Below are positions 36,263 to 56,070 of a stretch of DNA of 64,000 nucleotides, piece after piece. Origin of the DNA: Acidimicrobiia bacterium. Lineage in GTDB: Bacteria; Actinomycetota; Acidimicrobiia; Acidimicrobiales; JANYDT01. How positions within the stretch are numbered: position 1 is the first letter of the stretch; every line of letters starts with the position of its first letter. Location: contig JAYSSR010000038.1 in NCBI GenBank assembly GCA_043720395.1, positions 5,689-69,688 on the forward strand, written 5' to 3'. The position numbers and the translations under genes were made by a program. The notes beneath the pieces were generated by a model. It worked only from the letters and a program-made list of their open reading frames with translations, did no database searches and was not told the origin of the DNA.

Positions 36263-37660
36263 ATGAAGCGCCGTACCTTTACGCTCGGCGGATTGGCGAT
36301 AGCTCTGCTCGGCACGTCGCTCGCCGTTTCAACGGCGCGGACCGGCGTTGTTGGCGAGCGGCCCCCGACCACGACTCGGAGCGAAACTTCGACGACGCCG
36401 CCACCTCTCGTCGTTTCGGACGGACCGGTCGTCGCAACCGCAACCTTTGACACAGGCATCGAAGGGTGGGCCGAGTGGTGGAACGCCGCGACACTCACGG
36501 TCGCGTCAACACCGCGGACCGGCGCGGGCGCGCTCTCGGTTCGTGCGGGAAGCGGTCAGGCGACGGCGGTCCGTCAAACCGATGCGCTCGTGCCGGGCCA
36601 CCGCCATCGACTCTCGGTCTTCGCAAGGGGGACGGGCGGCATGTCCACTCAGATTTTGCAGTTCGACAAGAACTGGGCGAGCACCGACACCATCACGCTC
36701 CCGGTCGTCGTGCTCAACGAAACGGACTGGCACCCCTACGAGGTGGAGTTCTCAGTCGCCCCAACGACCGTCCACGCCAACGTCGCGTTCGCGGCCGACG
36801 GACCCTCGATGTTGCTCGACGATTTCGTTGTCAAGGACCTCGGAGCGACGCCGCGCCCGGCGTACGGCGTTCCGGTCCCGCGAGAAATGTCGCCTTGGCA
36901 GCTTTCCTGGTCGGACGAATTCTCCGGAACCGCGCTCGACCGCACGTTGTGGACTCCCGACGACGCACCGACGGACTTCAACGGCGAACTGCACTGCTAT
37001 ACGTCGCGCCCCGAAAACCTCTCGCTCGCCGATGGCAACCTTGTCCTGACCGCTCGCCGCGAGGCCGCGCTTCCCTGCCCAGGCGAAACCAGATTTCCGA
37101 ATGGTCGAACCTTCAGCTCGGCACTGGTCCGGTCCTCCGCCGTTCTTCGGGAAGGCCGGATCGAGATACGAGCGCGCCTCCCAAGCGGCAAAGGCATTTG
37201 GCCCGCCCTCTGGCTTTTGCCGAAGGACGCCGCCCGGTACAAAGACGGTCGAAACGGCGAGATCGATGTCGCCGAGGTCATCGGCAGTAGCCCGGACGTT
37301 GTCCACGCCTCGGTGCACTACGACTACACACGTCGAGTCGATGGCATTGGCCGCCAGACCGGGTCGCTCAGCCTCCCGGCCCCGGCCGATCGTGACTTTC
37401 ACGTGTATGCCCTCGAATGGGAACACGACCGGATGAGGTGGTTTCTCGATGATCGACTGTTTTTCGAAAGCGGTGCCGGTACGCGACCGTGGTATCCCCC
37501 ACCGGGTGCGGCCTGGCCAGCGCCGTTCGACCAAGACTTCTACGTGATTTTGAACTTGGCCGTAGGCGGCGGATGGCCGGGCGATCCCGATGCGAGCACG
37601 AGTTTTCCGGTCTCGATGGCGGTCGACTACGTGCGTGTGTTTCAGCGGGGGGCGTCGTGA
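36263..37660 (+). CDS. Secreted GH16 glycoside hydrolase (beta-glucanase-like) with N-terminal CBM4/9-like module
   Basis: Signal peptide MKRRTFTLGGLAIALLGTSLAVSTA, a CBM-like beta-sandwich region, then LSWSDEFSG..., the catalytic NGEIDVAEV (ExDxxE) and ILNLAVGGGWPG. I chose the ATG at 36263. Confidence 0.8.
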   Translation: MKRRTFTLGGLAIALLGTSLAVSTARTGVVGERPPTTTRSETSTTPPPLVVSDGPVVATATFDTGIEGWAEWWNAATLTVASTPRTGAGALSVRAGSGQATAVRQTDALVPGHRHRLSVFARGTGGMSTQILQFDKNWASTDTITLPVVVLNETDWHPYEVEFSVAPTTVHANVAFAADGPSMLLDDFVVKDLGATPRPAYGVPVPREMSPWQLSWSDEFSGTALDRTLWTPDDAPTDFNGELHCYTSRPENLSLADGNLVLTARREAALPCPGETRFPNGRTFSSALVRSSAVLREGRIEIRARLPSGKGIWPALWLLPKDAARYKDGRNGEIDVAEVIGSSPDVVHASVHYDYTRRVDGIGRQTGSLSLPAPADRDFHVYALEWEHDRMRWFLDDRLFFESGAGTRPWYPPPGAAWPAPFDQDFYVILNLAVGGGWPGDPDASTSFPVSMAVDYVRVFQRGAS

Positions 37661-37686
37661 GGTCAACCAACGCATCCAGCAGGTCG

Positions 37687-39891
37687 ATGACCAAAGGAAC
37701 CGTGGCATTCATTTGGCCTGAGGGACCGGGATTTCAAGCCGCTGGACAGTCCGCCCACCAAGAGTCGATTCGCCAACATTTCGAAGACTGTGGGTTCAAC
37801 ACCACCGTCTTTGTGCCGGGCGGGAAGGTGGCGAGTCCACTTCGCAGTGTTGGGAGCAAATCCGGGGCCCAACATCACGTTGTTACGCGCGGCGAACGCC
37901 GGATCGGAACGTGGTCGGTCGTCAGTCCCCGGACCGCTCTGACCGTGCTCACGTGGGGAGCGTTTCGACGTGCGCCGGAGCGGGTCCAACGCCGATTCGA
38001 CCGGGCGCGGACGTTCGCCCGCGCTCGTCGTGGAATCGATTTTGTCCTCGGCTCGCCGCTCACCCCGGACGACATCGCGTGGCTCAAAATGGAACTGGCG
38101 GCCCTCCAGCCCGTCCTGGTTGCGCCGTTCACCAGCTTCTGCGCTCCGCCGCGCCACGCGCTCCCGCGGAGCGTCAAGGCAGACATCTTGTTTCTGTCTG
38201 ACCATGAAGCGGATCGCCACCGCTCCCTCACCGAAGCCGGGCTGCGGGTCGCGCCATTCGACTACTCCGAGGCCCAAATGGTCACGGCCTTCTCGCCCTG
38301 GTCCGCGATCAGCGCGATCCAGTGGGACGAGGCCGCTTCCATCAAAGCCCTGCTCCCGTCCACAACGGTCTTCATCACGCCAGCGTCGCGAACCGCCAAC
38401 CCGGCACCTCCTGATCGGCTGGGTGAAGCACCGGTGGCGCTTTTCGTCGGAAGCGGGTCGATGCACAACGTCGATGGGCTCCGCTGGCTCCTCGCAGACA
38501 TCTGGCCCAAGATCCGTGCCAAGCGCCCCGACGCGGCTCTGCAGGTCGTCGGAACGGTGTGCGCACGCGTCGACGTTGTAGGCGAGGGCGTGACCGGACT
38601 CGGCGAGGTCGACGATCTCGACGCCGTGATCCAGAAGGCATCGGTCCTTGTTGTCCCGCTACGAACGGGGAGCGGACTCAAGGTGAAAGTGGTCGACGCG
38701 CTCTGCACAGGCAGCGCGATCGTTACGACCCCAATCGGGGCGCAAGGTTTTACGTCGATCGAACCGGAACCCTTTCTGGTTTGCGATGGTGCCGAACAGT
38801 TCGCCGATGGCGTGGTCAGCCTCTTCAACGATGAAGCACGTCGAATCGCACTACGACGACGCGCCACGGCGACCGCGTCGATGTTCTCCCCCGACAGGGC
38901 GTTCGACGCACTGGACGGCTATCTCGGCACGCGCGGCGTGACGATGGAACTCGCCGCAAACCCCGCAGCCGATTCACCCGCTGTGAGTGTCTGCATCGTG
39001 ATCCCGACGTTTCGGCGTGACGCGCTGCTCGCCGGCCTTCTCGCGTCGTTGCGGGATTTGGTCATTCCGTCCGAACTGTCTGCCGACGTCCTCGTGCTGG
39101 ACAACGACCCTGACGGGTCGGCCGAGGCCGCTGTGGAGGCGTCAGCGAAAACGTCGAGCCCGCTGAGCGTCCGCTACCAATACGTTGGAGCGGGTGACAT
39201 CTCGAAGGTTCGGAACGCGGCGATCGACGCGACGAGGGACCGTTACGACTTTGTGGCACTTCTCGACGACGACGAACAGCCCGAACCTACCTGGCTCCTC
39301 GAATTGTTCGCATGCCAACGTCGGTGGGACGCCGACGCCGTCATTGGACCGGTGCTCGGGCGACTTCCATCGAACTGCCCACCATGGATTGCCGATGGTC
39401 GGTACTTCGACGTCGTCTCGGGCAACGACGGGGCCCTGCTCCACGAGGGGATAACCGGCAACGCGTTGTTGCGTTGTGCGACTCTCAAGATGAGCGCACT
39501 GCGTTTCGACGAATCCATGGGCCTCTCCGGCGGTGAAGACCAACTTTTCTTCCGTCAACTGGTCCTCCAGGGTTCTCAGATCCGCTATGCCGCAGGCGCC
39601 GTGGTCCGCGAAACCGTCCCGGAGCACCGGTGCACCGCGTCGTATCTTCTGCGGCGCAGCGTCCGAGTCGGCAACACACTCGGCCTGATCGATGGCTGGA
39701 AGCAACGCACACCGTCCGCCGTAGCAGCGCGTACTGCCAAGTCGGGTGCATGGGTGGCAACGGGAGCTGCACGATCGTTCCTTGACATGACCCGAGGGGC
39801 GAGCCCTCTACCCGGCGCACTCCGCATTGCGCGAGGTGTCGGCATGGCACTTGGTCTCGCGCATTACCGCTACGACATGTACGCAAAATGA
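37687..39891 (+). CDS. Bifunctional glycosyltransferase: N-terminal GT-B (GT4/GT1-like) fused to C-terminal GT-A (GT2)
   Basis: GT-B C-terminal half LFVGSGSMHNVDGLRWL...VVPLRTGSGLKVKVVDALCTGSAIVTTPIGAQG. From about 38980 a GT2 domain: VCIVIPTFRRDALL...VLDNDPDGS...ALLDDDEQPEPTWL. I chose the ATG at 37687. Confidence 0.75.
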   Translation: MTKGTVAFIWPEGPGFQAAGQSAHQESIRQHFEDCGFNTTVFVPGGKVASPLRSVGSKSGAQHHVVTRGERRIGTWSVVSPRTALTVLTWGAFRRAPERVQRRFDRARTFARARRGIDFVLGSPLTPDDIAWLKMELAALQPVLVAPFTSFCAPPRHALPRSVKADILFLSDHEADRHRSLTEAGLRVAPFDYSEAQMVTAFSPWSAISAIQWDEAASIKALLPSTTVFITPASRTANPAPPDRLGEAPVALFVGSGSMHNVDGLRWLLADIWPKIRAKRPDAALQVVGTVCARVDVVGEGVTGLGEVDDLDAVIQKASVLVVPLRTGSGLKVKVVDALCTGSAIVTTPIGAQGFTSIEPEPFLVCDGAEQFADGVVSLFNDEARRIALRRRATATASMFSPDRAFDALDGYLGTRGVTMELAANPAADSPAVSVCIVIPTFRRDALLAGLLASLRDLVIPSELSADVLVLDNDPDGSAEAAVEASAKTSSPLSVRYQYVGAGDISKVRNAAIDATRDRYDFVALLDDDEQPEPTWLLELFACQRRWDADAVIGPVLGRLPSNCPPWIADGRYFDVVSGNDGALLHEGITGNALLRCATLKMSALRFDESMGLSGGEDQLFFRQLVLQGSQIRYAAGAVVRETVPEHRCTASYLLRRSVRVGNTLGLIDGWKQRTPSAVAARTAKSGAWVATGAARSFLDMTRGASPLPGALRIARGVGMALGLAHYRYDMYAK

Positions 39892-40808
39892 CCACCACCG
39901 CTCGTGACGAAATCGCGGCTACTCGGGATAATGTTCGCGGCCGACTCGCTGCCCGGCACAACGTCGTGTTGGAACAGGACCGCCGTCCGGTCAGGGGCGC
40001 ACCCCAACGCAGTTCAGAAGGAAATCGCAGGATGGTCGAGGTTCGTCGGGTCCGGGTGCTCAACTCATGGGTTGAGACATTCGACTCAGAATCTTTTCTT
40101 GCCACGATCAGTCGACATGTCGCCTCGGGCGAGCAGGTCGTGGTGGCCAATCACAACGTGAACAGCCTCACAATTTTTCAGCATGACGAAAAGTTCCGCG
40201 AGTTCTTTGACATCGCGCAGCATTGTTTCGTGGACGGAATGGGTGTGCTCGCGATCTCGAGGCTGGAGGGCACCGGGGTCAGGGCGGTCAATCGCATCGC
40301 CGTTCTCGACTGGATCTGGCGGCTCCTCGCACTTGCCGAGCAAGGCGGGTGGCGGGTAACCCACCTTGGTTCCACCCCGGACACGATCGCCGCCGCTTCT
40401 CAAAAGATCCTGGCCGAGCGGCCGCAACTCGAACTCACGATGCTGGACGGCTTCTTCGACCACCAACGCGATTCCGAGGGCAACCACGCCCGTCTCGACG
40501 ACCTGAGGGCGGCGGCACCCAACATTTTGCTAGTCGGTATGGGTATGCCACTTCAGGAACACTGGCTCGTTGAAAATTTGGGTGAATTGCCCAACTGCGT
40601 GATCATCACCGTCGGCGGGATCATGGGCTTCCTCGGCGGTGACCGCAAGACCCCTCCTCGCTGGATGGGACGTCTCGGAATCGAGTGGCTCTTTCGTGTC
40701 GCTACCGAGCCACGCCGATTGACCCGCCGGTACACCGTCGAACCCCTCGAGTTGGCACCGGTGATTGGACACCATGTCGCCGAACGTCTGCGGCGGCATC
40801 AGCGATGA
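39888..40808 (+). CDS. WecG/TagA/CpsF-family (GT26) glycosyltransferase
   Basis: VVVANHNVNSLTIFQ...CFVDGMGVL...ILLVGMGMPLQEHW...TVGGIMGFLGG...EWLFRVATEPRRL. The ATG overlaps the upstream stop (ATGA). The ATG at 40032 is an alternative. Confidence 0.8.
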   Translation: MTTTARDEIAATRDNVRGRLAARHNVVLEQDRRPVRGAPQRSSEGNRRMVEVRRVRVLNSWVETFDSESFLATISRHVASGEQVVVANHNVNSLTIFQHDEKFREFFDIAQHCFVDGMGVLAISRLEGTGVRAVNRIAVLDWIWRLLALAEQGGWRVTHLGSTPDTIAAASQKILAERPQLELTMLDGFFDHQRDSEGNHARLDDLRAAAPNILLVGMGMPLQEHWLVENLGELPNCVIITVGGIMGFLGGDRKTPPRWMGRLGIEWLFRVATEPRRLTRRYTVEPLELAPVIGHHVAERLRRHQR

Positions 40809-40888
40809 TCTCGGCACAATGAAGGTGCGACCCCCGATTGAGTCCGCGGCCCCTTGACCAGGCACGCCCCAACTGTGAAGCTGGCTTC

Positions 40889-42724
40889 ATGACCACGAAG
40901 AGCGGCGAATCGTCGCGGCGAATCGTCGCGTTGACGCTGATCGCCACCCTCTGCGCTTGTCAGTCTGCTGCGCACGCTGCTACGGCAACGACCACCGCGA
41001 GCCCGACAACGACCCGGCCAATCGGCACTTCGCCCACGGCACGAACCCGAGTGATTGCGCCGACGACCGCCCTTCGACCGAGTCCAGTTAGGCCCACCAC
41101 AACAGGCGTGGGCCTCAAGGGGACAGCAACGACAACGAAAGGCCAGCCCCCAACCACCACCATCGCCAAGGGACGCGTCACTACAACGACGTTGCTGAGC
41201 GTTTCGGCAACACCGACCACGCGAAGGACTCGGATCACGGTCCGACCAATCGCTCCGCCGAAACCGACCGCCGCGACCGTTGCCGACGCGTCCGTCACGG
41301 TCGCAGCCGCGCGTCGAAAGCGGGACGCAAAGGCACTCATAGCGGGTTTGAGGATGCTCGGCCTGCGACTCCTGGAGGCGAAACGTCCGGCCGAATCCGC
41401 CACAGCATTGCGCGAAGCCGTTGGTCTGCTCAACGCGCCGGGCGACCTCCTCGAACGCCGCGAAACCGAGGCAACCCTTGGATGGGCGTTGAACACCGCG
41501 GGCGACTTCAAAGGTGGCGTCACAGTCCTGCAAGACGCGCTCCGCCTCGGCGACGAGCAGCGTGCGACACAACCGGTCATGGTCAACATCTTGAAACTTC
41601 TCGTTTGGGGCGCACGCGCGAGCAGTGACCACGAGTCGGCCGTCAATGCGCTTGAACGACTGCGTGACTTTGGCGAAAAAGGCGATAGCACGATTGATCT
41701 TGGCGACACCTATGAGGGACTTGCGGTCGAACGGCTCCTCATGAAGTCCGTCGGTCCGGCGGTCTCCTATGCACGAAAAGCCGTCGCCGCTCGTGCCAAC
41801 GCCAAACCAGTCGTGCTCGCCGGTTCATATCAGGTGTTGGGATGGGCGCTCGACAGCATGGATTCCTCCCCGGAGGCGATTCAGGCGCTAAAGAAGTCCA
41901 TCGACTTGCGCCGCCAGGCTGGCGTCGCCGCTTCGGAGAACCTCGAAGCACTCCTACTCCTGGCCAATTCTGCCCGCAAGGCGGGTGACGCAGACACGAG
42001 CTTCACCGCTCGCCGTGACGTCATTCAGATAGCGCGAGACAGAGGCGATGCTCCTGCGCTGGCCGACGGCCTCGACGAACTCGGGCTCGCCGCGCTGCTG
42101 CTGCAACGCCCGCAAATCGCCGTACCGCCGCTTACCGAAGCCGTAGCGCTGCGTCGCTCGTCTGGTGCCAGCGTGGCGTTCGGTCGATCACTGCACCTGC
42201 TTGGCTGGGCGCTCTCCGGCAGCGGACGCAAAGATGAAGCTGTTGGCACGTACAACGAAGCTGCGGAAATCCGCCGTCAGGTCGGCGACACCCGCGAGGT
42301 GCAGCTTGAATCACTTCGCGCTCTCGGCTACCTACTTTGGGAATTGAAGCGCGGGAACGAGGCCATTCCGCCCTTTGAGCGCTCCCTTGCGTTGGTGAGA
42401 AAGGACCCATCAGATGCTCCCTCGGAGGCGGCTGCGTTGACGGATCTCAGCGTTGCCTATCTCATTGGCTCAATCCCGGACAAGGCCTTGGAACCAGCAC
42501 AAACCGCCATCGATCTCTTCGAGCGAATCGACAAAAAAGGCGAGGCCCTTGCTGCGGCGTTGTATGCATATGGCTGGGCCTTGTTCAGCAATGCTCGCCA
42601 AAAGGAGGCCATCGATCCATTTCGTCGGTCACTCGCGATCCGCGAAGCGGCGGGCAGCGCAAAGATCGACGAAACACGATCGTTCCTCCAGGCAGCCATC
42701 GAATCGAGCGGGCCAGGGGGCTGA
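40889..42724 (+). CDS. Secreted/lipoprotein-like TPR-repeat protein with Thr/Pro-rich N-terminal linker
   Basis: Signal-like IVALTLIATLCAC, ~150 aa of Thr/Pro-rich sequence, then about 10 TPR-like repeats (recurring A..L..LG.AL...G....A......A..I motifs). Confidence 0.6.
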   Translation: MTTKSGESSRRIVALTLIATLCACQSAAHAATATTTASPTTTRPIGTSPTARTRVIAPTTALRPSPVRPTTTGVGLKGTATTTKGQPPTTTIAKGRVTTTTLLSVSATPTTRRTRITVRPIAPPKPTAATVADASVTVAAARRKRDAKALIAGLRMLGLRLLEAKRPAESATALREAVGLLNAPGDLLERRETEATLGWALNTAGDFKGGVTVLQDALRLGDEQRATQPVMVNILKLLVWGARASSDHESAVNALERLRDFGEKGDSTIDLGDTYEGLAVERLLMKSVGPAVSYARKAVAARANAKPVVLAGSYQVLGWALDSMDSSPEAIQALKKSIDLRRQAGVAASENLEALLLLANSARKAGDADTSFTARRDVIQIARDRGDAPALADGLDELGLAALLLQRPQIAVPPLTEAVALRRSSGASVAFGRSLHLLGWALSGSGRKDEAVGTYNEAAEIRRQVGDTREVQLESLRALGYLLWELKRGNEAIPPFERSLALVRKDPSDAPSEAAALTDLSVAYLIGSIPDKALEPAQTAIDLFERIDKKGEALAAALYAYGWALFSNARQKEAIDPFRRSLAIREAAGSAKIDETRSFLQAAIESSGPGG

Positions 42725-42862
42725 CGTGGTTGTCTCGCGTCCTTCGCCCATTTCCTTGAGGACCCGTAACGAAACAACGTGCGCGCACACTGATCGACAG
42801 CGCCGTGCGCGACACGGGTACGGAGATTTGGGCGCGCAAGTAGTTACGTTCCGTGCCCTCCC

Positions 42863-44260: not shown

Positions 44261-44309
44261 GTTCCCCACCCCCAGTGACCTCCCCACCCACACACCCAGG
44301 GAGTTCGAG
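44259..44309. repeat. C-tract element related to the 24-nt G-tract repeat family (inverted orientation, degenerate)
   Basis: GAGTTCCCCACCCCCAGTGACCTCCCCACCCACACACCCAGGGAGTTCGAG lies directly after the wzx stop. Compare the reverse complement of the repeat unit, AGTTTCCCGCCCGCCCACCCAGTG. Confidence 0.5.
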
Positions 44310-44354
44310 AGGCGGATGCGGGGCAGCGCAAGGGATCACGAGTACACACTCGCG

Positions 44355-47076: not shown

Positions 47077-47105
47077 ACGTGCTCCGAAGAAGTAAGTTGA
47101 AAATA

Positions 47106-50100
47106 CTACGTGCGCTTAGTTCGTCGCTGTAGTTCGTTCGACTCAATGTGAGATTCAAGCAACTCAGCAAGCTGAGGAAGGTTTTTCGGTGCGATCATCG
47201 AAAAGTGGTCGCCCGGAGCGTCCCGAACCTCGAACGTGCCAACGATGTTGGCCGCAAGGCCGTATCCCTCCGGGTACGCCGGCCATTCGGTAGCTGCACG
47301 TGCGAGCAAGACATTCACCCTGTAGATGCCCATTTCGTGAAGGTCGTACGCACGCTTGAAGTCGAGCTCCGCTGCGACTTCCGCCGTTGCATCATGGAGT
47401 TCATCGGCAGGCACCCCCGACTGCCGCGAAAACCTGCGGTCCAACACCCCTCGTGCCCATGGCATCACTGCGACCGGACCTCGTCTCCACAGGTTCCGGG
47501 CCACATTACGCAACTTGGCACCGATCGGCGGATTGAACCCGCGTGGAGGCACGGTGTCGAGGAGGATAACCGAGACAACATCGCGAGCGCGTTTGCGGAG
47601 TTCCTCAGCCATTTCGAGAGCGATGACGCCGCCACCGGAATATCCAGCAAGGAAGAACGGTCCCTCCGGCTGAACTTCCATCAATCGGGACGCGTACCGT
47701 TGTGCCATAGCGGAAATGCTTGCGTCGGCAAACCCACCGATAACCCAATTCGCCTGATAGCCGTACACGCTTCGATCGCCCCGCAAGGCGCGGGCAAGGA
47801 GCCGGAGCCCGACGAGATTGCCTCCTGCGCCGTGCACCATGTGCAGTGGAGTGGTCGTCGAATTCCGTCCCTCACGCAGCGTGATTGCAACCGACAGGTC
47901 CAGTGCCCGTTCCGGGGAGCGAAGAACGGCGAATGCGTTCGGGCTTGGGGCGATCACCAGCATCGGAAGCGAGGCAGTGCCTCCCAGCTCCCGACGGATG
48001 CGCGCCAACAGCCGTAAGCCCAGCAGTGAGTGGCCCCCGGCTTGGAAGAAGTCCGTATTCTCATCGGCAGCGGGGTCCCCGAGGACGTCGCGCCACAGCA
48101 GCGTAAGTCGCTCAAGGTCTGGCGCGCCGGTTGTCTCTGGCGATGTCGTGTTGACGAGGTGCCCTCCGTGTTCGACGGCACCCGATCTGGCCACGTCCGC
48201 TCGGCCAAGCACGGATTCGGCCCCAGCATGTGTGGACGCAGACTCCGGCTCACCAATAGTCACCAGGATCGCGTCGAAGCCGCTCGTCGAGGCGTGAACC
48301 AGCGCGCTACGAGCACGACTGGCCGTCATGGCGAGCGGTGCCGCCGCCGGGCTTGTCCATACGTCGCGAACTCGCCTCAGTTCACATCCCCTGAATACGG
48401 CGATCACCCCGTCGGCGTCGACTAGTCGAAGGTCGAAACAAACGAGGTCTGTGGTCATTTCACGCCGTCGGATCACAACATCGAACGCACCCTCGACGGG
48501 GCGGAACACCTCGACCGACGCAAACTGGGCCGGAACCCAAAATCCGACGGCAGCGCCTACGGAACCTTCCAGCCCAAGAGCGAGTGCCAAATCAAGGGCC
48601 GCCGGGTGCACGATCCACGACGAGTGCTCCGCGGCATACGACGCAAGAACAACTCGACCGAAGTCACGGTCCGACGAGCCTTGGACGTTCGCATTCCAGT
48701 GAGGCCCGACTACGAGCGAGCGGGTTTGATTTCTGAACACGTCAACGACTTCGAAGTCCGACGCAGCCCGAATCTCCGAGCCGTCGTAGGAATCGCCGAG
48801 GTCGTCGGTCGGCGGTGCGGCCACAATCGCCTGACTGTGCAGCGTCCACGTGTCGCCACCGGCCGGACGCCCCTCAACCCGCACAGCGCGGATGTCGCGG
48901 TCTGGCGGATCGAGGACGGCCCGAACCTCGACGACGACGTCGTCGTCGCAGAGCAGCGGCTCGATGATCGTGACGTCGACGATGTGGCGCGACGCGGGGC
49001 CTTCGCCGAGCGCGGCGAGCATCAGTGCAATATGTGCGGTGGCAGGGAGGACGGCACGCTCCGCAATGCGATGCTCGTTCAAGATCCACGTCTCGGTAGG
49101 GAGCGCAGAACCCGAAAGGACGATGGACCCGTCGGCGAGGGCATCGCGAACGTTGAAGAACGGGTGCGAAATCGAAATCGAGCCATGGACCACAGGCGTG
49201 CTGGCCATGCCGCCATCGCAGAATCGTCCCCAAGCGATGGTCGCGATTCGCGACGACCCTCGGGCCCCTGCGAGCGCCTCGACAACCGCGTTAGCAGCGA
49301 TGTACGCAGCCTGGCCGGGGATGCCGAGCGTGGTGCTCGCCGAGCCGACGAGCTGCACCAACGTGTCCGGGCGACTCTCGGCGTACCCGACCAATCGTTC
49401 AGCGATCATGAGCTTCGCCGCCAGCACCGCCTCCACGTCGTCCTCGGTCAACTGAGCGAGGAGACGGTCATGAAGCACACCGACCGCGTGGACGACCGAG
49501 TCGAACTCACTCGTTCGCAGCACCGCATCCAATTCCTTCGCGTTCGCCGCATCGACCACGCGGAGACTCACGGTGCGGCCAGCTTCGGTGGCCAACGCTT
49601 CGAGCTGAGCAAGGCGTCGAAGACGCTGGGATTGCGGTTCAGCGGGACCGTGTGTTGCAAGCCATGCCGATGCGTCAAGCGGAAGTTCAGACCTGGTCGT
49701 GACCGCAACGTCAGAACCGCTGGCGAGAAGCGCGGCTGCGTGAATGGCACCGACGTGTCCGAGGCCACCGAGCACAAGGCCGCATCGCCGCGACACGGCG
49801 TCGGCATGGTCCGTCAAGTCAGCACCTGTGACGGTGCGTGTCCAGGCCCGCCGCTTCGCTCCGTCGTGCCCCACGCCGACAACGCCGACGATTTCCGGGT
49901 CCATCAGAAGATCAACAATCGGTCCCAACACGCCCGACGGGGGTTCCGTGGAACCGCCGGACGCAGCACTGGAATGGCTCGCGAGGTCCACCACGATCCC
50001 GGTCAGTCCCGGGTATTCCTGTGCGAGGACGCCGGTAACACCCGCCGCGGCCGCCAGCCCTGGGTTGGCCGCCGGTGATGTTGGACTCGGCCATGCTCCG

Positions 50101-53100
50101 ACCGTCAGCACCGCTAAGCGGCCGACACCTGTTTCCGTCCGCTCGAAGAGCTGATTCGCTGCCTGTGCGCAGCGCCGGACCAATGAGGCGGCAACGTGTT
50201 CGAGTTGACGATCCCCTCCTCGCGTCACGACAAGTGCGCCAGTAAGTGGTGCGTTGGGCATCTCCTCGCCGGAGTTCACAAGGTGGATGCCGCGACGTTC
50301 CAGAGCGATGGAGAGCGCAGCGGCCACCCGGTCGTCGGGCTCTGCGTCGAGTAGCCAAACTCCGGCATACGCCGCTGACTCCTGGGACACCACCGGTGTC
50401 CAGGTCGGAACCGACACGACGACGTCGTGCGACTTCGAAGCTCCTGATTCAGGCGCGTCCGGACTGGCCGCAGTTGTCGAGACCCCTGCGCTCGGTCGCA
50501 CGGGATCGATCCAGGCGCGGTGCCGGTCGAGGCGCGGTACGGGAAGGCGTACTCGACGAACTGACGCGTCGACGAGGCGCCTCGCGTCAAGGTTTGCGCC
50601 ATGGCACCAAAGCTGTGTGACGCCATGCAGCAACCCGGTGACGGCGTCGGCATCGATGCCTCCGAGAATTGGAATCACCGTCGAACTTGGCTCCAGCGTT
50701 CGAACTGCTGCGGTGAGTACTTTCCCCGGAGCGACCTCGATTCCGAGGAACGGGCCGTCTGTTGCCGCGGCCCGTACCGCATCGCTGAAGCGGACGGTGC
50801 CGCGCAGCTCGTCAACCCAATACGCAGCGTCGAGCAGACCATCGAATCGGCCACCGGTCTGTGTCGAGTAGAACGCGATCTCCGGACGCCTCTGCGTCGT
50901 GTCGTTCATCCGCGCTCGGAACGCATCGAGATGGTCGTCGAGTCCACGGAAATGGGCGGCCGCCGCGAGGTTGACCCGTCGACAGTCGATGTCCGCACTG
51001 CGCAAAGCGCGTTCGAACAGGTCAATATCGGAAGTCGCGCCCGAATACACCAGTTCGTCGGGAGCATTCACCACCGCCAGATCGAGCGCGTCCGAAAGGT
51101 ACGGCCGCAGTTCGGACGCGGAAGCGAACACGGCGATCATTGCGGCCCCAGACGCTCCCGAACGCACTGGGTGGGCGGGCGGGGAATTCGCTGGGCGGGA
51201 CGCGTTCGCAATCGCCTCGGCACGCGCTCCGATGCCAATCACCGCGTCGCGCAGCGTTGCCGCGCCTGCCGCAACAGCCGCCGCATGCTCACCCATACTG
51301 TGACCGAGCACCCCCGCTGGGGCGATACCCCAATCCACGAGCTGCCGGCTCAAGGCATACTCCGCAACAAACAACGCCGGGAGCCCGACCGCGGGGTTGC
51401 GCAGACGCTCATCGATCGCGTCATCGCGTCCTGCGCGGAGCAGATCGCCAAGGTCCAGTCCCAGTTCCGTCCGTGCGGCGGCCACGGCTTGCTCGACCGC
51501 GTCATTGAACGTCCGAAAGCGGGGACCGGGCGCTGCGAGCAGTTCCGAGATCATCCCCGAACGCTGTGGTCCGGCACCTGGGAAAAGGAACAGCACCCTT
51601 GCCGATTGACTCGCCTGTACTGGCTTGACTGCATCGAGACCGCGCCGAAGATCGTCGGACGACGACCCGATCACGCCAGCTCGCCAGGCGTGCGCCGAGC
51701 GGCCGACGCCAAACGTCGCAGCTACCTGCGCGGGTGTCGGCAAGGTCGGAGCGGGTGTCGCGATTGTCCTGCCGACTCGTTCGGCAAGGTTGCAAAGACT
51801 CTCCGCCGTGGGCGCCGAGATCAACAACACCGACGGGTCCACGATGCCACCAACGACCGCCGCGGCGTCGCTGGAAGCCGCGGCCTCCACCAACTCCCCG
51901 CCCGCCCCCCCGGTCAACTCCCCGCCCGCCCCCCCGGTGAACTCTTCGACGATCACGTGCGCATTCGTCCCGCCGACACCGAGTGACGTCACACCTGCGC
52001 GCCGAGGTGCGGGTGCGTCCCATACCTCGAGTTCCGTGACGATCCGAAGTCCAGCACCAGCAAGGTCGATGAGGGGATTCGGTTCGGAGAAGTTGGCCTG
52101 TGGCGTGATCGTCCGTCGACGCAGCGATTCAACGATTTTGATGAGACCCGCGATCCCGGCGGCCGTGTCGGCGTGGCCGATGTTCGCCTTGATCGATCCA
52201 ACGGCGGGCAAGGTGGCAGTTGGCTCGGCATCGCGGCGATCTCGCGTTTTCAGCGCCTCAGACAGGGACGCGAACTCAATCGGATCACCAAGTGCAGTTC
52301 CGGTGCCGTGCGCCTCAATGAGCGAGACCGACGATGCTTCGATGCCTGCGACCGACAAGGCCTCACGGACGACGTCGACTTGGCCCTCCACGCTCGGCGC
52401 GTAGTAGCTCACCTTTCGCTGACCGTCGTTGTTGATGGCCGTACCTCGGAGCACGGCGAGGATCGGATCGTTTGCGGCAACGGCGTCCTCGTAGCGGCGC
52501 AGCGTCACCAGGCCCGCGCCGCTGCTGAGGACCGTTCCGGTCGCACGAGCATCGAAGGGTCGGCAGTATCCATCCGCGCTGAGCACTTCGCCAGCGACGT
52601 AGCGGTAACCAGCGCGCACGGGCACCTCGATCGTCGCCGCCCCCGCGAGAGCGAGGTCACACTCGAACGAGAGCAAGGCCTGTACGGCGAGGTGCACGGC
52701 CGTCAACGAGGTCGAGCATGCCGTCTGCACGCTCAGCGCGGGGCCTCGGAGATCGAGCCGATACGCGAGAGTGGTAGCGGCGAAATCTTTGTCGTTGCCA
52801 AGGTGTCGTAATCCAAACCAGCCGAGGTCTCGAATCAGGTCGGGGCGGCTCAGCAGGTTACGGGCGAGATAGGTGTTGTAACCGACGCCGACATAGACGC
52901 CGACACCGTCACGGAGGCGCTCCAGCTGGTGCGTGCCGGATTCGAGGGCTTCCCACGCGAGCTCCAGCAGGTGACGAATCTGCGGATCGATAAGGGCCGC
53001 CTCGCTCGGCGCAATCCCGAATCGGGCGGCGTCGAAGAGTTCGGGGTCGGCGAGATCGCCACCGCGTCGGATGCGCTCGGGGTCGGCCAAGTCGTGCGGC

Positions 53101-53288
53101 TCAAGGCCTGCCGCGATCAGATCGTCAACGGTCAGATCTGCGATCCCCTCACGGCCCGAGGCCAGAAGGTCCCACAGCTCGTCGGTATCGCGAGCACCAG
53201 CAAAGCGACCGGACATCCCGGTAATCGCGATTGCCCCCTCGAAGTGTTCAGAACCAGAGTTCACTGGGTGGGCGGGCGGCGAACTCAA
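47106..53288 (-). CDS. Type I polyketide synthase, single module KS-AT-KR-DH-ACP-TE (2060 aa)
   Basis: KS: IAITGMSGRFAG, VQTACSTSL, EAHGTGTALGDPIE, GSIKANIGHADTAAG. AT: FLFPGAGPQRSGM, GHSMGE. KR: LVLGGLGHVG, GQAAYIAANA. DH: HPFFNV, LNEHRIAERAVLP, VHPAALDLAL. ACP: FFQAGGHSLLGL. TE: MVHGAGGN, GYSGGG, PGDHFSM. The listed start is TTG at 53288; GTG at 53264 is an alternative. Confidence 0.9.
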   Translation of the reverse strand: MSSPPAHPVNSGSEHFEGAIAITGMSGRFAGARDTDELWDLLASGREGIADLTVDDLIAAGLEPHDLADPERIRRGGDLADPELFDAARFGIAPSEAALIDPQIRHLLELAWEALESGTHQLERLRDGVGVYVGVGYNTYLARNLLSRPDLIRDLGWFGLRHLGNDKDFAATTLAYRLDLRGPALSVQTACSTSLTAVHLAVQALLSFECDLALAGAATIEVPVRAGYRYVAGEVLSADGYCRPFDARATGTVLSSGAGLVTLRRYEDAVAANDPILAVLRGTAINNDGQRKVSYYAPSVEGQVDVVREALSVAGIEASSVSLIEAHGTGTALGDPIEFASLSEALKTRDRRDAEPTATLPAVGSIKANIGHADTAAGIAGLIKIVESLRRRTITPQANFSEPNPLIDLAGAGLRIVTELEVWDAPAPRRAGVTSLGVGGTNAHVIVEEFTGGAGGELTGGAGGELVEAAASSDAAAVVGGIVDPSVLLISAPTAESLCNLAERVGRTIATPAPTLPTPAQVAATFGVGRSAHAWRAGVIGSSSDDLRRGLDAVKPVQASQSARVLFLFPGAGPQRSGMISELLAAPGPRFRTFNDAVEQAVAAARTELGLDLGDLLRAGRDDAIDERLRNPAVGLPALFVAEYALSRQLVDWGIAPAGVLGHSMGEHAAAVAAGAATLRDAVIGIGARAEAIANASRPANSPPAHPVRSGASGAAMIAVFASASELRPYLSDALDLAVVNAPDELVYSGATSDIDLFERALRSADIDCRRVNLAAAAHFRGLDDHLDAFRARMNDTTQRRPEIAFYSTQTGGRFDGLLDAAYWVDELRGTVRFSDAVRAAATDGPFLGIEVAPGKVLTAAVRTLEPSSTVIPILGGIDADAVTGLLHGVTQLWCHGANLDARRLVDASVRRVRLPVPRLDRHRAWIDPVRPSAGVSTTAASPDAPESGASKSHDVVVSVPTWTPVVSQESAAYAGVWLLDAEPDDRVAAALSIALERRGIHLVNSGEEMPNAPLTGALVVTRGGDRQLEHVAASLVRRCAQAANQLFERTETGVGRLAVLTVGAWPSPTSPAANPGLAAAAGVTGVLAQEYPGLTGIVVDLASHSSAASGGSTEPPSGVLGPIVDLLMDPEIVGVVGVGHDGAKRRAWTRTVTGADLTDHADAVSRRCGLVLGGLGHVGAIHAAALLASGSDVAVTTRSELPLDASAWLATHGPAEPQSQRLRRLAQLEALATEAGRTVSLRVVDAANAKELDAVLRTSEFDSVVHAVGVLHDRLLAQLTEDDVEAVLAAKLMIAERLVGYAESRPDTLVQLVGSASTTLGIPGQAAYIAANAVVEALAGARGSSRIATIAWGRFCDGGMASTPVVHGSISISHPFFNVRDALADGSIVLSGSALPTETWILNEHRIAERAVLPATAHIALMLAALGEGPASRHIVDVTIIEPLLCDDDVVVEVRAVLDPPDRDIRAVRVEGRPAGGDTWTLHSQAIVAAPPTDDLGDSYDGSEIRAASDFEVVDVFRNQTRSLVVGPHWNANVQGSSDRDFGRVVLASYAAEHSSWIVHPAALDLALALGLEGSVGAAVGFWVPAQFASVEVFRPVEGAFDVVIRRREMTTDLVCFDLRLVDADGVIAVFRGCELRRVRDVWTSPAAAPLAMTASRARSALVHASTSGFDAILVTIGEPESASTHAGAESVLGRADVARSGAVEHGGHLVNTTSPETTGAPDLERLTLLWRDVLGDPAADENTDFFQAGGHSLLGLRLLARIRRELGGTASLPMLVIAPSPNAFAVLRSPERALDLSVAITLREGRNSTTTPLHMVHGAGGNLVGLRLLARALRGDRSVYGYQANWVIGGFADASISAMAQRYASRLMEVQPEGPFFLAGYSGGGVIALEMAEELRKRARDVVSVILLDTVPPRGFNPPIGAKLRNVARNLWRRGPVAVMPWARGVLDRRFSRQSGVPADELHDATAEVAAELDFKRAYDLHEMGIYRVNVLLARAATEWPAYPEGYGLAANIVGTFEVRDAPGDHFSMIAPKNLPQLAELLESHIESNELQRRTKRT
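47154..47861 (-). other. PKS thioesterase domain (approximate)
   Basis: aa ~1810-2045. GYSGGG (GxSxG), LLDT, GDHFSM. Confidence 0.75.
47904..48125 (-). other. PKS acyl carrier protein domain (approximate)
   Basis: aa ~1722-1795. GGHSLLGLRLLARI phosphopantetheine-attachment Ser motif. Confidence 0.8.
48369..49166 (-). other. PKS hot-dog (PS-DH-like) domain located after the KR (approximate)
   Basis: aa ~1375-1640. HPFFNV, HxxxExxxxP (LNEHRIAERAVLP), HPAALDLAL. Confidence 0.6.
49224..50411 (-). other. PKS ketoreductase domain including structural subdomain (approximate)
   Basis: aa ~960-1355. RLAVLTVGAWP...GLTGIVVDL (psi-KR-like), GGLGHVG Rossmann motif, and Tyr in GQAAYIAANA. Confidence 0.7.
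50709..51599 (-). other. PKS acyltransferase domain (approximate)
   Basis: aa ~564-860. GHSMGE nucleophile and a downstream AAAHF region. Interrupted by a repeat-derived insertion at aa 698-716. Confidence 0.75.
51165..51190 (+). repeat. G-tract repeat copy A (CACTGGGTGGGCGGGCGGGGAATTCG) inside the AT-coding region
   Basis: Seen directly. On the coding (minus) strand it encodes NSPPAHPVRS. Confidence 0.9.
51891..51938 (-). repeat. Two tandem inverted-orientation copies of the 24-nt unit (plus-strand CAACTCCCCGCCCGCCCCCCCGGT x2) in the KS-AT linker coding region
   Basis: Exact 24-nt tandem duplication. The reverse complement ACCGGGGGGGCGGGCGGGGAGTTG matches 20/24 positions of copy A. Encodes TGGAGGEL twice. 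Confidence 0.9.
51948..53237 (-). other. PKS ketosynthase domain (approximate)
   Basis: aa ~18-447. Active-site Cys in TACSTS, His in EAHGTG and IGHADTA. Confidence 0.8.
53262..53287 (+). repeat. G-tract repeat copy B (CACTGGGTGGGCGGGCGGCGAACTCA) spanning the PKS start region
   Basis: Seen directly. On the minus strand it encodes SSPPAHPVN at PKS residues 2-10. Confidence 0.9.
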
Positions 53289-53297: not shown

Positions 53298-53867
53298 TCA
53301 GCTCGTTCGGAAGTTTTCAAAATAACGACTCGGAGTCGGTCCTCGCTGGCCCTGATACTTGGAGCCCAGAGCAGACGAGCCGTACGGGTTATCAGCAGGA
53401 GATGTCATTCGAAGAAAGCTGATCTGGCCAATTTTCATACCCGGGTACAACGTGATCGGCAGGGTGGCCGCATTGCTCAATTCCAGCGTGATGTGCCCAT
53501 CAAAGCCTGGATCGATGAAGCCTGCCGTGGAATGAATCACGAGACCTAATCGTCCAAGGCTCGATTTGCCCTCGATCCGGGCCACAAGGTCGGCCGGCAC
53601 GGCAATCCTCTCAGCGGTCGCGCCCAGTACGAACTCACCGGGGTGGAGAATGAACACGTCGTCCTCACCGATCTCGATGAGTTCAGTGAGATCTTCCTGA
53701 TTCTCTTTGACGTCGATAACGGCAGTCGTGTGATTGCGAAACACGCGAAAATATCGATCGACTCGAAGGTCGATCGACGATGGCTGGATGTTCGCCGGTT
53801 CAAACGGGTCAACCACAATTCGCCCCGCGGCAATCTCTTCGCGAAGCGTCCGGTCGGAGAGGATCAT
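53298..53867 (-). CDS. dcd: dCTP deaminase (dCTP deaminase/dUTPase family)
   Basis: [12 protein letters not shown]...[10 protein letters not shown]...[31 protein letters not shown] are classic Dcd motifs. Confidence 0.9.
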
Positions 53868-54016: not shown

Positions 54017-54074
54017 GGCTCGCACACCCGACGAAGTCGCGGCGGCTCGCACACCCGACGAAGTCGCGGCGGCT
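54017..54074 (+). repeat. 2 x 27-nt perfect tandem repeat (GGCTCGCACACCCGACGAAGTCGCGGC) plus a partial third unit
   Basis: Copies at 54017-54043 and 54044-54070, then GGCT. Abuts and overlaps the stop codon of the GH16 gene at 54073. Confidence 0.9.
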
Positions 54075-56070
54075 ACAACGGTGCGTAGACCCGAACCCAG
54101 TCGACCAGTACCGTCGCCGGGAAGTCGGCCAACGATGGCGGTCCCGGCCATTCGCCACCGACGGATTGGTTGATGATCACGTAGAACGGCTTGTCGAACG
54201 GGGCCGTGCCGCCAGGAACCCGGTAGCTATGGACCAGAACGTCATCGACGTACCACCGGATGATCCCCGCCTCCCACTCGATCGCGTACCGGTGCCACTC
54301 CGACGCCGGACTCGCAAGATCGGCACCGGCGGACGACGCTTTGTGGGAACCGCTTTCCCCCCAATGAATCGTATGGAAGACCGTCTGCGGGGGCTTGGCG
54401 ACGTACTCCATGATGTCGATTTCGCCGCTATTCGGCCAACCCCCGTAGGCCGCGTCTGCCGGCATGAGCCAGAACGCGGGCCACGTGCCTTTCGCGAGCG
54501 GCAGCTTCATGCGCGCCTCGAAACGTCCGTACGTCTGCGCAAATTTTCGACGTGTGGTCACGAGCCCGCTGACCCAGGCACGGTTTGACCCATTGCAGGT
54601 GGCGGATTTCGGCTGGGCGGTGAGCTGCAAGGAACCACCAGCGACGACGCTCTGCTCGGAGCGATAGCACTCGAGACCGAACGTGTCGTCGAAGTCACCT
54701 GCACCGGTCGTGACGGCGGTCCAGTCGGCACCGAGCCCGTCTGTGAACTCGTCGGACCAGGTCAACACCCGCGGACCCACCGGAAGCGAGGTCGTGGTTG
54801 AGGATGGGGCCGCCGTCGCGGACGTTGTCGATGTGGACGTAATGGACGTGGTCGCTGGCACCGTCGACGTGGAGGCTGGCACCGTCGACGTGGAGGCTGG
54901 CACCGTGGACGCTGGCACCGTGGACGTGGTCGACGTGGCGGAAGGCGCTGTCGTTGTGGAGGCTGTCGTTGTGGAGGCTGTCGTCGTGGAGGCTGTCGTC
55001 GTCGCGGTGGGTGTCGGCGTCGTTGTCGTCGCCGCGGTCGGTCTCGACGTACTCGTGCCGGTCGCCGTCGCGGTCGTGGTCGTGACGCCGGGGGTCGCGG
55101 CGGTGAGGTTGGGTGGGGCCGGACTCGTGGTCGGAGCAAGGGTCGGCCGTGCAGACACCGTCGTTGCGGTCGTCGCCGTCGTGGTGATGGTCGGTGATCC
55201 GAGCAACTTCGGGACTGACGTGGATGTTGTCGCCGAAACCGTGACGGATGACGGCGCCAAGACATTCGCACCACTCGCGCCAACGCGCAACGCCGTGGTG
55301 GACGCCGTCGTGCTGGTCGACGTCGTGCTGGTGGGTGTCGTGAGCGGAACCGAGGCCGGGGTCAAGGTTTCTTGAACTGCGGCGAGTTCGGCAACACCGG
55401 TGGACCATGTCAGGTCCTCGCTGTCACCCGCTGTGGCCGAGCGGGGTTCCGCAACTGTCGAGACGGGTTCCGCAGTCGTCGGGACGGTTTCATCGGCCGT
55501 CGCAACCGGTTCCACACTCGTCAAGACGGGTTCTTCGCCACCCCGCCCACCAGGGACCTCGATCCAGTCAAACCAGACATCCGCCAAGTCGAATCGGACG
55601 GCGTTTGCACCCGCTCGAAGCGGGAGGACGACGGCGACGGTGGACCAACTATCGGGCGAGGCGAGGTAGCGGACGCCGCCCGCCACGGCAACGTCGTTTA
55701 CCGAAATCGTTCTCGTCACTGCACCCGTCGTTCGAAACCTGACGGACATCACAACTTCGCCTGCTACAAGCGCCGAAACGATGCACGTCGCCGAACCCGT
55801 TCCCTCGGTGCCCGAGCCGAAGACGGCAGATCCCTCCAAGCCGGATGGATTCACCGAACTCGACGCCACCACGCCCGTGAGCGTGCAGTCCTCAACTTGG
55901 ACGCGCGCAAGAGTCATGGTGTCGACCGGCCGGGCGGGCAACGACACGAGGGGTTCGATCTGATCGACCGAGTTCGCCCCGGAACCGCTCGAGAGAAGCA
56001 GCGCAGGCAGAGACCCGAGCGCGATGGCCACGACTGCGGCAAGAGCGGCGGCCTGCGAACGACGTGTCAC
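54073..56070 (-). CDS. Secreted GH16 glycoside hydrolase with N-terminal CBM6/35-like module and a ~200-aa Thr/Ser/Pro/Ala linker
   Basis: Signal/TM AAALAAVVAIALGSLPALLL, a lectin-like N-domain and a long T/S/A/P linker. The C-terminal domain has LTWSDEFTD, the catalytic SGEIDIMEY (ExDxxE) and IINQSVGGEWPG. Confidence 0.8.
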   Translation of the reverse strand: MTRRSQAAALAAVVAIALGSLPALLLSSGSGANSVDQIEPLVSLPARPVDTMTLARVQVEDCTLTGVVASSSVNPSGLEGSAVFGSGTEGTGSATCIVSALVAGEVVMSVRFRTTGAVTRTISVNDVAVAGGVRYLASPDSWSTVAVVLPLRAGANAVRFDLADVWFDWIEVPGGRGGEEPVLTSVEPVATADETVPTTAEPVSTVAEPRSATAGDSEDLTWSTGVAELAAVQETLTPASVPLTTPTSTTSTSTTASTTALRVGASGANVLAPSSVTVSATTSTSVPKLLGSPTITTTATTATTVSARPTLAPTTSPAPPNLTAATPGVTTTTATATGTSTSRPTAATTTTPTPTATTTASTTTASTTTASTTTAPSATSTTSTVPASTVPASTSTVPASTSTVPATTSITSTSTTSATAAPSSTTTSLPVGPRVLTWSDEFTDGLGADWTAVTTGAGDFDDTFGLECYRSEQSVVAGGSLQLTAQPKSATCNGSNRAWVSGLVTTRRKFAQTYGRFEARMKLPLAKGTWPAFWLMPADAAYGGWPNSGEIDIMEYVAKPPQTVFHTIHWGESGSHKASSAGADLASPASEWHRYAIEWEAGIIRWYVDDVLVHSYRVPGGTAPFDKPFYVIINQSVGGEWPGPPSLADFPATVLVDWVRVYAPL
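54854..55006 (-). repeat. Tandem coding repeats in the GH16 linker (21-nt GCTGGCACCGTCGACGTGGAG units, then 15-nt GCTGTCGTYGTGGAG units x4)
   Basis: Seen directly. Encodes STVPASTSTVPAS... and TTTAS x4 low-complexity linker sequence. Confidence 0.85.

Follow-up and report, generated by a model that had tools for sequence, protein, structure and literature searches.

A single-module polyketide synthase gene embedded in a predicted Wzx/Wzy-type polysaccharide locus of an Acidimicrobiales bacterium

Gene content and organization of the locus

A 64-kb stretch of DNA from an Acidimicrobiia bacterium (64,000 nucleotides [nt] of contig JAYSSR010000038.1; called the window below) contains a type I polyketide synthase (PKS) gene lying among genes for the assembly of a polysaccharide. 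An earlier examination of the bare sequence (here, the sequence-only reading) had reported ten genes between positions 36263 and 56070, on two converging strands. All ten open reading frames (ORFs) were present in the ORF listing, in the order and at the coordinates reported, and their families were upheld by Pfam, NCBIfam, homologue searches, and two structure models.

The PKS gene (positions 47106 to 53288, minus strand) is followed on the same strand by the gene for a predicted Wzc-like polysaccharide co-polymerase (PCP) of 481 amino acids (aa) (45631 to 47076) and then by a gene for a polymerase or ligase of the Wzy_C family (44355 to 45623; PF04932, E value of 5e-17; at least 7 transmembrane [TM] segments). 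It is preceded by dcd, encoding dCTP deaminase (53298 to 53867, minus strand; TIGR02274, 9e-69). The spacers measure 9 nt (dcd to PKS), 29 nt (PKS to PCP), and 7 nt (PCP to Wzy_C), exactly as reported, and the PKS gene is thereby embedded in operon-like fashion in a locus of Wzx, Wzy, and PCP genes. GGAG stands ahead of the ATG start of the PCP gene. The Wzy_C gene begins at a GTG (45623) or, alternatively, at an in-frame TTG ten codons downstream; polymerase and ligase roles of its product are indistinguishable by sequence.

Converging on these genes from the plus strand are those for a fused GT4-GT2 glycosyltransferase (GT), a GT26 enzyme, an exported tetratricopeptide repeat (TPR) protein, and a Wzx-type flippase. 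The GT4-GT2 gene (37489 to 39891) is a single ORF with Glyco_trans_1_4 (residues 315 to 448) and Glycos_transf_2 (residues 502 to 626) domains, and its start is likely the ATG at 37687 rather than position 37489. Its stop overlaps, in an ATGA, the start of the gene for GT26 (39888 to 40808), a member of the WecG/TagA/CpsF family (PF03808, 4e-43). The TPR protein (40838 to 42724; TPR_12, 6e-30) has a lipoprotein-like signal peptide, with the N-terminal sequence MTTKSGESSRRIVALTLIATLCAC, and is followed by the 465-aa flippase of the multidrug/oligosaccharidyl-lipid/polysaccharide (MOP) type (42863 to 44260).

Two GH16 glycanases flank the set, and like the TPR protein they carry export signals. 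GH16a (36263 to 37660, plus strand; PF00722 and PF02018, i.e., GH16 and CBM4_9) has a signal peptide, the catalytic motif EIDVAE, and weak NCBIfam similarity to beta-glycanases of the ExoK/EglC type. Its paralogue GH16b (54073 to 56070, minus strand; PF00722, 2e-23; motif EIDIME) is 38% identical to it across the catalytic domain, and the catalytic motif ExDxxE is kept in both. Whether GH16b is a member of the locus is uncertain; in the closest relative (see below), its counterpart was a called fragment of only 145 aa, placed differently.

The GC content is 0.61 to 0.62 over positions 40000 to 48000 (TPR, Wzx, Wzy, PCP, and the 3' end of the PKS gene) and mostly 0.63 to 0.67 elsewhere. This dip is consistent with the separate, mobile history that is typical of Wzx/Wzy genes.

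Domain architecture of the PKS

The PKS ORF is intact over 2060 codons. Translation may begin at the GTG at 53264 instead of the TTG at 53288, and the NCBI gene call is 2036 aa long; an exact look-up of that call (P0001) found nothing on record. Pfam detected ketosynthase (KS), acyltransferase (AT), ketoreductase (KR), dehydratase (DH), carrier, and thioesterase (TE) domains, and about 300 residues ahead of the KR domain are consistent with a structural KR subdomain (psiKR). The motifs TACSTS, EAHGTGT, GHSMGE, AAAHF, GGLGHVG, HRIAERAVLP, GGHSL, GYSGGG, and GDH are all present, and the catalytic residues expected of a reducing, releasing type I PKS module can all be read in the translation, namely, Cys-His-His of KS, GHSxG and Arg of AT, the Rossmann motif and Tyr of KR, the DH His, the carrier Ser, and Ser-Asp-His of TE. 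The module nevertheless departs from common forms in several respects. The KR domain stands ahead of the DH domain, the DH motif HRIAERAVLP has Glu where the HxxxGxxxxP type has Gly, and the AT specificity motif is an atypical AAAH rather than HAFH or YASH. Neither an enoylreductase (ER) domain nor a second carrier was found by Pfam.

The domains named in the sequence-only reading, KS-AT-KR-DH-ACP-TE, were upheld, with one correction: the carrier bears the FFxxGGHSL motif of nonribosomal peptide synthetases (NRPSs). The carrier-TE region is closest by sequence to the peptidyl carrier-TE didomains of AB3403 (8e-24) and EntF (1e-19), followed by the TE of Pks13 (2e-10). The protein is best described as a single-module hybrid-type PKS, KS-AT-(psiKR)KR-DH-peptidyl carrier-like-TE. 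An iterative PKS of the enediyne or polyunsaturated fatty acid type, which the position of KR before DH had suggested, was ruled out on account of the NRPS-like carrier-TE and the lack of a phosphopantetheinyl transferase (PPTase) domain and of tandem carriers.

Directly upstream of the glycan locus, positions 25445 to 36117 encode methylmalonyl-CoA mutase, the beta subunit of propionyl-CoA carboxylase, methylmalonyl-CoA epimerase, a Ccr-like crotonyl-CoA reductase/carboxylase, and a thiolase. For the carboxylase subunit, the closest named homologues came from Acidimicrobiales and Rhabdothermincola (about 80% identity). Together with the AAAH motif of the AT domain, this acyl-CoA gene block raises the possibility that the PKS uses an ethylmalonyl or methylmalonyl extender.

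Assignment to the Wzx/Wzy pathway

A flippase, a Wzy_C protein, and a PCP, the features of a Wzx/Wzy-dependent pathway, all occur at the locus. The 465-aa membrane protein had no direct Pfam match. It has at least nine TM or hydrophobic segments, its remote homologues carry PF01943 (Polysacc_synt), and a homologue with 85% identity is named O-antigen/teichoic acid exporter in the JGI records. The top match of its AlphaFold model (pLDDT of 82, pTM of 0.77) was the lipid III flippase WzxE (TM score, 0.67 to 0.77), ahead of MATE transporters and MurJ. The protein is identified as Wzx.

The PCP-like protein had been described as resembling a bacterial tyrosine (BY) kinase, and this held for its fold. 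It has about 2000 homologues; among 29 full-length ones, 8 matched Wzz and 11 matched AAA_31. The protein itself had weak NCBIfam matches to BY-kinases and has a helical ectodomain between two TM segments. Full-length Escherichia coli Wzc was matched by its model (pLDDT of 84) in a Foldseek search (1e-19), and the C-terminal domain resembles the kinase domains of CapAB, Wzc, and Etk. However, the Walker A motif (GxxxxGK[ST]) lacks its lysine, reading SSEERAGTST, as does the consensus of the homologues, and the C-terminal tail FDQKSIFPIINRP contains no tyrosines, so that the tyrosine cluster of BY-kinases is missing. Because both features are missing, the protein is probably a Wzc-like co-polymerase with a degenerate P-loop domain and not an autokinase.

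An initiating phosphoglycosyltransferase was not encoded nearby: tblastn found no Bac_transf homologue in the window, and no Bac_transf or WecA/MraY-type domain occurred in the ORFs scanned with Pfam. GT26 enzymes normally act after a WecA/TagO-type primer, often encoded elsewhere, and carry out the second step on polyprenyl-diphosphate (polyprenyl-PP) carriers. From these gene families, the best explanation of the locus is a Wzx/Wzy-dependent pathway for a cell-surface heteropolysaccharide of a monoderm Acidimicrobiales bacterium.

Conservation of the locus in close relatives

The closest PKS relative in the database search (P0002) was about 73 to 74% identical. Its contig, L001, has the order PBP-panB-rpsF-ssb-rpsR-rplI...dcd-PKS (PBP, penicillin-binding protein) and ends 189 codons into a PCP-like gene that is 83% identical to that of the window. 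A second contig of the same metagenome, L098, carries TPR-Wzx converging on Wzy-PCP, with TPR and Wzy_C proteins 82% and 81% identical to those of the window, and the two contigs have 134 nt in common at their ends, with 99% identity. Joined by this overlap, the two contigs show that the relative keeps the same dcd-to-TPR order, i.e., dcd-PKS-PCP-Wzy facing Wzx-TPR.

All compared genes were under purifying selection. At a synonymous divergence (dS) of about 1 between the window and the relative, the ratio of nonsynonymous to synonymous substitution rates (dN/dS) was 0.014 for dcd, 0.044 for TPR, 0.068 for Wzx, 0.075 for Wzy, 0.05 to 0.10 for PCP, and 0.16 for the PKS.

A scan of representative genomes (one per species) with the KR-DH region found nothing above 35% identity, and conservation of the exact arrangement is therefore known from this one relative. 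No further close relatives were found in a metagenome scan with the PCP-like protein, and a metagenome scan with a subfamily-specific DH-carrier-TE alignment returned a single match of 25% identity.

The sequence-only reading had counted dcd as part of the minus-strand unit, a claim that did not survive comparison. Eleven contigs (L087 to L097) carry dcd copies with at least 90% identity, and in none of them is dcd followed by PKS or glycan genes. Since their dcd genes have unrelated neighbors, dcd was ruled out as a member of the operon or system; it is merely a conserved flank, and the PKS-glycan block is an accessory island. The dcd region of these contigs is hypervariable, with an RHS/YD-repeat toxin, Fic, RlaP, an ISL3 transposase, an Apyc1-like protein with a metallo-beta-lactamase fold, and unannotated proteins of 633 to 1674 aa.

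A widespread PKS family and its loading module

Beyond P0002, database searches recovered a large set of homologues of 2010 to 2115 aa that are about 36% identical to the window PKS over the full length and share its motifs and architecture (the latter in about 50 of them). Those with names belong to Acidimicrobiales, namely, to Actinomarinicola and Desertimonas. In the KR-DH scan, family members were found in metagenome-assembled genomes of Ilumatobacteraceae and Iamiaceae, in Sulfitobacter, Tabrizicola, Pseudorhodobacter, and Mesorhizobium, and in one metagenome-assembled genome of Pseudomonadales.

In 15 family loci, the PKS gene adjoins a gene for a protein of about 1550 aa with Formyl_trans_N, AMP-binding, and PP-binding domains and a luciferase-like monooxygenase inserted into the AMP-binding domain, i.e., an F-A(MOx)-PCP loading module (PCP in this formula being the peptidyl carrier protein), hereafter the loader. 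Among proteins of solved structure, its best homologues were LgrA, a formylating initiation module (2e-224), and PuwE, a monooxygenase. The loader is also adjacent to the PKS in three annotated alphaproteobacterial plasmid records, in one of which its domains were confirmed. The LgrA-like loader of the relatives implies that the family makes a small product derived from an amino acid; no product has been reported in the literature searched. The loader gene is part of a cassette, which in Sulfitobacter has the order PKS, GT2, loader, PPTase and thus agrees with the four-gene cluster of Roseobacter genomes (see below).

The window copy stands apart from this pattern. The loader is missing from the window and from the stretch upstream of the PKS gene in L001, and tblastn detected no hidden loader, PPTase, Bac_transf, DegT, or sugar epimerase gene in the window. 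Orthologues of the cassette GT2 (Rhodobacterales) or GT4 (Acidimicrobiia) were likewise not found. The fused GT4-GT2 of the window was ruled out as such an orthologue, its only match being one at 4e-4 to the GT2 of one locus.

In a rough neighbor-joining tree of the KS-AT region, the window PKS and P0002 formed a long branch, sister to a loader-bearing clade of Acidimicrobiia, and both fell inside a group that holds the alphaproteobacterial members. This topology places the window PKS as a divergent, loader-less offshoot of a family that is widespread in Acidimicrobiia and Alphaproteobacteria. Because the tree nests it within a loader-bearing group, the loader was most likely lost or relocated in the lineage of the window.

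In loader-bearing members, a helical segment of about 45 residues that lies between the DH domain and the carrier is conserved (LLxLAxxLGIxxxEGxxLxERL...SSVDLDxLR). The segment is shortened and divergent in the window PKS (positions 48159 to 48500; columns 601 to 671 of alignment A1) and in P0002; the lost loader may have made contact there.

Glycan genes beside the PKS family

The sequence-only reading would have failed had PKS homologues in relatives never adjoined wzx, wzy, or PCP genes, but such neighbors do recur: Wzx flippases in L004, Paracoccus, and Shinella and a Wzy_C-like gene in Ruegeria, besides genes for GT26, GT2, and GT4 enzymes in the family. Glycosyltransferases were present in the neighborhoods of all four distant homologues examined; one of these loci, L004, adds DegT, an epimerase, and Wzx. 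Among 57 flanking ORFs from ten further loci, we found five GT4, three Bac_transf, at least two GT2, two PPTase, and one DegT genes. In a phmmer screen, GT, glycan-related, or PPTase genes flanked the PKS in 14 of 18 family loci (in one of them, a PPTase only). Such genes were found in 2 of about 60 loci that carry other PKSs and in none of the 11 dcd-relative loci, an imperfect control in that the queries were drawn from the family loci and many control loci were filled by multimodular PKS genes. The GT26 of the window is 28 to 37% identical to the GT26 enzymes encoded beside family PKSs in L002, L013, Paracoccus, and Shinella.

Priming phosphoglycosyltransferases lie near family PKSs in L010, L016, L017, Ruegeria, and Shinella. 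In L010 and L016, genes for GT4, the loader, the PKS, and a WbaP-like primer follow one another on one strand, the primer (Bac_transf) directly downstream of the PKS. Three plasmids annotated in RefSeq extend the pattern. In Ruegeria conchae, the order is GtrA, GT2, exosortase, rfbCBDA, Bac_transf, PKS, GT2, loader, PPTase, a hypothetical protein, and a weak Wzy_C protein. In Paracoccus marcusii, a GT26, another GT, and a flippase stand upstream of PKS-GT2-loader. In Shinella zoogloeoides, genes for a primer, GT2, GT26, PPTase, and loader are divergent from the PKS gene, which is followed after 60 nt by an oligosaccharide flippase gene. On the R. conchae plasmid (NZ_CP081104, L099; 1035 to 7004), a VPLPA-CTERM exosortase (XrtD) and a GlyGly-CTERM protease (MprA) adjoin the PKS cassette beside rfbABCD, which is another link of the cassette to cell-surface sorting and exopolysaccharide systems.

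Comparison with known systems

The sequence-only reading had not recognized the arrangement as a described system, and here two precedents have to be set against it. Type I PKSs occur in the capsule clusters of Burkholderia pseudomallei (WcbR) and rhizobia (RkpA) (PMC3908369), and a wcbR knockout lowers the level of capsular polysaccharide I (CPS-I) (PMC3735121). The wcb and rkp-1 clusters thus resemble the window in placing a type I PKS inside a surface-polysaccharide cluster, where it is needed for full polymer. Such capsule clusters are ABC-transporter/KpsCS-type systems of diderm Proteobacteria. The window locus, compared with them by description only, is of the Wzx/Wzy type, with no Kps-type or ABC-transporter genes, and no Burkholderia or Sinorhizobium proteins were among the 120 best matches of its PKS.

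The second precedent is the cassette of the PKS family itself, an orphan cluster known since the mid-2000s. A four-gene NRPS/PKS/GT/PPTase cluster with an uncharacterized product has been reported from 28 of 57 Roseobacter genomes (PMC4337385, describing Martens et al.). Cassettes of this type (also in Acidimicrobiia, Paracoccus, Shinella, and Mesorhizobium) share with the window the PKS architecture, including the AAAH-motif AT and the GGHSL carrier, as well as the setting among glycan-assembly genes, and the PKSs group together in the KS-AT tree. In contrast, the window lacks the F-A(MOx)-PCP loader, the PPTase, and the cassette GT2/GT4; its PKS is only about 36% identical, and its PKS gene is fused into a PCP-Wzy operon. 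Neither this loader-less variant in Acidimicrobiales nor the systematic embedding of the PKS family in Wzx-type glycan loci of two phyla has been described or recognized in the literature searched.

Other systems resemble the window in part. The enterobacterial common antigen (ECA) pathway (WecA, WecG, WzxE, WzyE, and WzzE), in which assembly proceeds on polyprenyl-PP-GlcNAc made by a WecA-type enzyme, has in common a GT26, a WzxE-like Wzx, a Wzy-family protein, and a co-polymerase. It differs in having no PKS and a Wzz-only co-polymerase instead of a Wzc-like one with a degenerate ATPase, and the host of the window has no outer membrane. The succinoglycan (exo) system of Sinorhizobium meliloti combines a Wzx/Wzy/PCP pathway with a GH16 glycanase, ExoK, to which GH16a is weakly similar, and non-sugar acyl groups are attached to its repeat unit before the unit is flipped. 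These groups (acetyl, succinyl, and pyruvyl) are added by small transferases and not by a megasynthase, and its co-polymerase, ExoP, is an active tyrosine kinase. Mycobacterial Pks13, a terminal PKS, has a TE that is sequence-related to that of the window and passes an acyl chain (mycolate) to the sugar trehalose, not to water. Pks13 joins two very long fatty acids and has another domain set; the likeness is limited to the TE fold, for which the AB3403 and EntF didomains are closer.

Possible role of the PKS in glycan assembly

A functional link between the PKS and the glycan is probable, given the operon-like embedding of the gene, the kept gene order, purifying selection, and the glycan neighbors found across the family. 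As to the nature of the link, our best reading, which we hold tentatively and at somewhat short of even odds, is that the PKS supplies a non-sugar acyl substituent for the surface glycan. In such a pathway, a housekeeping WecA/TagO-type enzyme encoded elsewhere would prime polyprenyl phosphate, giving polyprenyl-PP-GlcNAc, and the GT26 and fused GT4-GT2 enzymes would assemble the repeat unit on the cytoplasmic face. The PKS would condense a starter with one malonyl-type extender, reduce it, and dehydrate it, leaving a short 2-enoyl or 3-hydroxyacyl thioester on the carrier. The NRPS-type TE might then either pass the acyl group directly to the lipid-linked repeat unit, at one of its hydroxyl or amino groups, or release it as the free acid. 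Transfer would possibly take place in the cytoplasm before flipping, perhaps by the TE itself; the acyl groups of succinoglycan and the mycolate transfer by the Pks13 TE are precedents. The decorated unit would be flipped by Wzx and polymerized by the Wzy_C protein under the control of the kinase-dead Wzc-like co-polymerase, and outside the cell, the exported TPR lipoprotein and GH16 glycanases would handle the polymer or trim it. That the acyl group is short, and not a long lipid, is suggested by the N-formyl amino acid starter of the relatives and by the lack of an ER domain in the module.

Several observations weigh against this proposal. The gene order is kept in the single close relative found, which is split over two contigs joined by 134 nt, and the PKS evolves faster than its neighbors (dN/dS, 0.16 versus 0.04 to 0.10). 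Neither the loader nor the PPTase nor orthologues of the cassette GT2/GT4 accompany the window copy, so that family-level inferences may not transfer to it. A promoter and terminator scan was uninformative, with counts at or below shuffle expectation. No acyltransferase gene is encoded at the locus, and direct transfer by a TE to a sugar is an analogy only.

The alternative that fares best, which we judge rather unlikely, is that the PKS makes a free metabolite independently and only shares the variable accessory island downstream of dcd with the glycan genes. The absence of the block from relatives with near-identical dcd and the hypervariability of the site (RHS, Fic, and transposase) would suit such a chance association, as would the lack of orthology between the window GTs and those of the cassettes. 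A GC content of 0.61 to 0.62 for TPR-Wzx-Wzy-PCP, against 0.65 to 0.665 for most of the PKS gene, likewise suggests different histories. Set against these points, the 29-nt and 7-nt same-strand spacing has been retained at a dS of about 1, the PKS family occurs repeatedly beside glycan-assembly genes in two phyla, and the PKS gene has no adjoining genes for tailoring, regulation, or export of the kind that metabolite clusters typically contain.

The sequence-only reading had proposed that the glycan is assembled on, or capped by, a polyketide-derived lipid. Capping or decoration by a polyketide-derived group agrees with our best reading; assembly on a carrier lipid made by the PKS is less likely than acyl decoration of a polyprenyl-linked repeat unit. 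In its fullest form, the lipid proposal holds that the PKS, fatty-acyl-primed or iterative, makes a lipid aglycone or primer, or the final acceptor for a WaaL-like Wzy_C ligase, and this we regard as unlikely. WcbR and RkpA, with the reduced CPS-I of the wcbR knockout, give it a precedent, the Wzy_C family includes ligases (the Pfam family is named O-antigen ligase), the absence of the loader leaves room for another starter in the window copy, and an MMPL transporter gene lies near one family member (L005). However, iteration by a single module without an ER domain would yield a polyene and not a saturated lipid, and the starter loaded in the family relatives is an N-formyl amino acid, not a fatty acid. 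Moreover, GT26, Wzx, and Wzy in the window and Bac_transf in the sister loci point to polyprenyl-PP carriers, and neither a fatty acyl-AMP ligase (FAAL) nor FadD is encoded in the window.

It is highly improbable that the PKS is a nonfunctional remnant that is merely read through after loss of the loader and PPTase: both are missing from the window, its dN/dS is the highest of the block, and its DH-carrier linker is shorter than in the family, but two lineages retain the 2060-codon ORF intact, its dN/dS of 0.16 (dS, about 1) means clear purifying selection, every catalytic motif is kept, and the PPTase and the starter source may lie outside the 64-kb window.

The acyl-decoration reading can be extended to the whole family, as a possible but more doubtful proposal. 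A conserved megasynthase family of two phyla would build an unusual acyl group, derived from an N-formyl amino acid or of the enoyl type, which its own peptidyl carrier-TE would transfer to polyprenyl-linked units before Wzx acts, and the window PKS would be a version rewired, without its NRPS partner, into a PCP-Wzy operon. If so, surface glycans decorated by polyketides would constitute a new class. Attachment of the PKS product to the glycan would show that assembly-line enzymes, usually linked with antibiotics and lipids, also give Wzx/Wzy polymers non-sugar decorations. A testable function would also be available for the orphan NRPS-PKS cluster, whose relatives are common in abundant, mostly uncultured Acidimicrobiia. 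In these environmental groups, phage recognition, aggregation, and carbon export are governed by the chemistry of surface glycans. Current genome-mining tools may be misclassifying such genes in scoring them as secondary-metabolite clusters.

Flanking genes and other features of the window

One side of the locus is occupied by housekeeping genes: rplI-rpsR-ssb-rpsF, panB, and genes for a class A PBP and an enzyme of the CCA-adding/poly(A) polymerase family. The other side holds the acyl-CoA genes named above, which count as housekeeping genes as well. The arrangement PBP...rpsF-ssb-rpsR-rplI is typical of Actinomycetota, and with the homologues of the carboxylase subunit it marks the host as an uncultured, monoderm member of Acidimicrobiales. 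Farther away, the window carries selA and selB, for selenocysteine incorporation (8320 to 11478); ARAGORN and Rfam found no tRNA-Sec in the window, only a tRNA-Pro (18198 to 18274), and Rfam found no riboswitch in it. Two neighboring ORFs (12192 to 13055 and 13241 to 14104) have no Pfam family and are not paralogues of one another. Each encodes exactly 287 aa, and one gave a marginal match (E value of 0.037).

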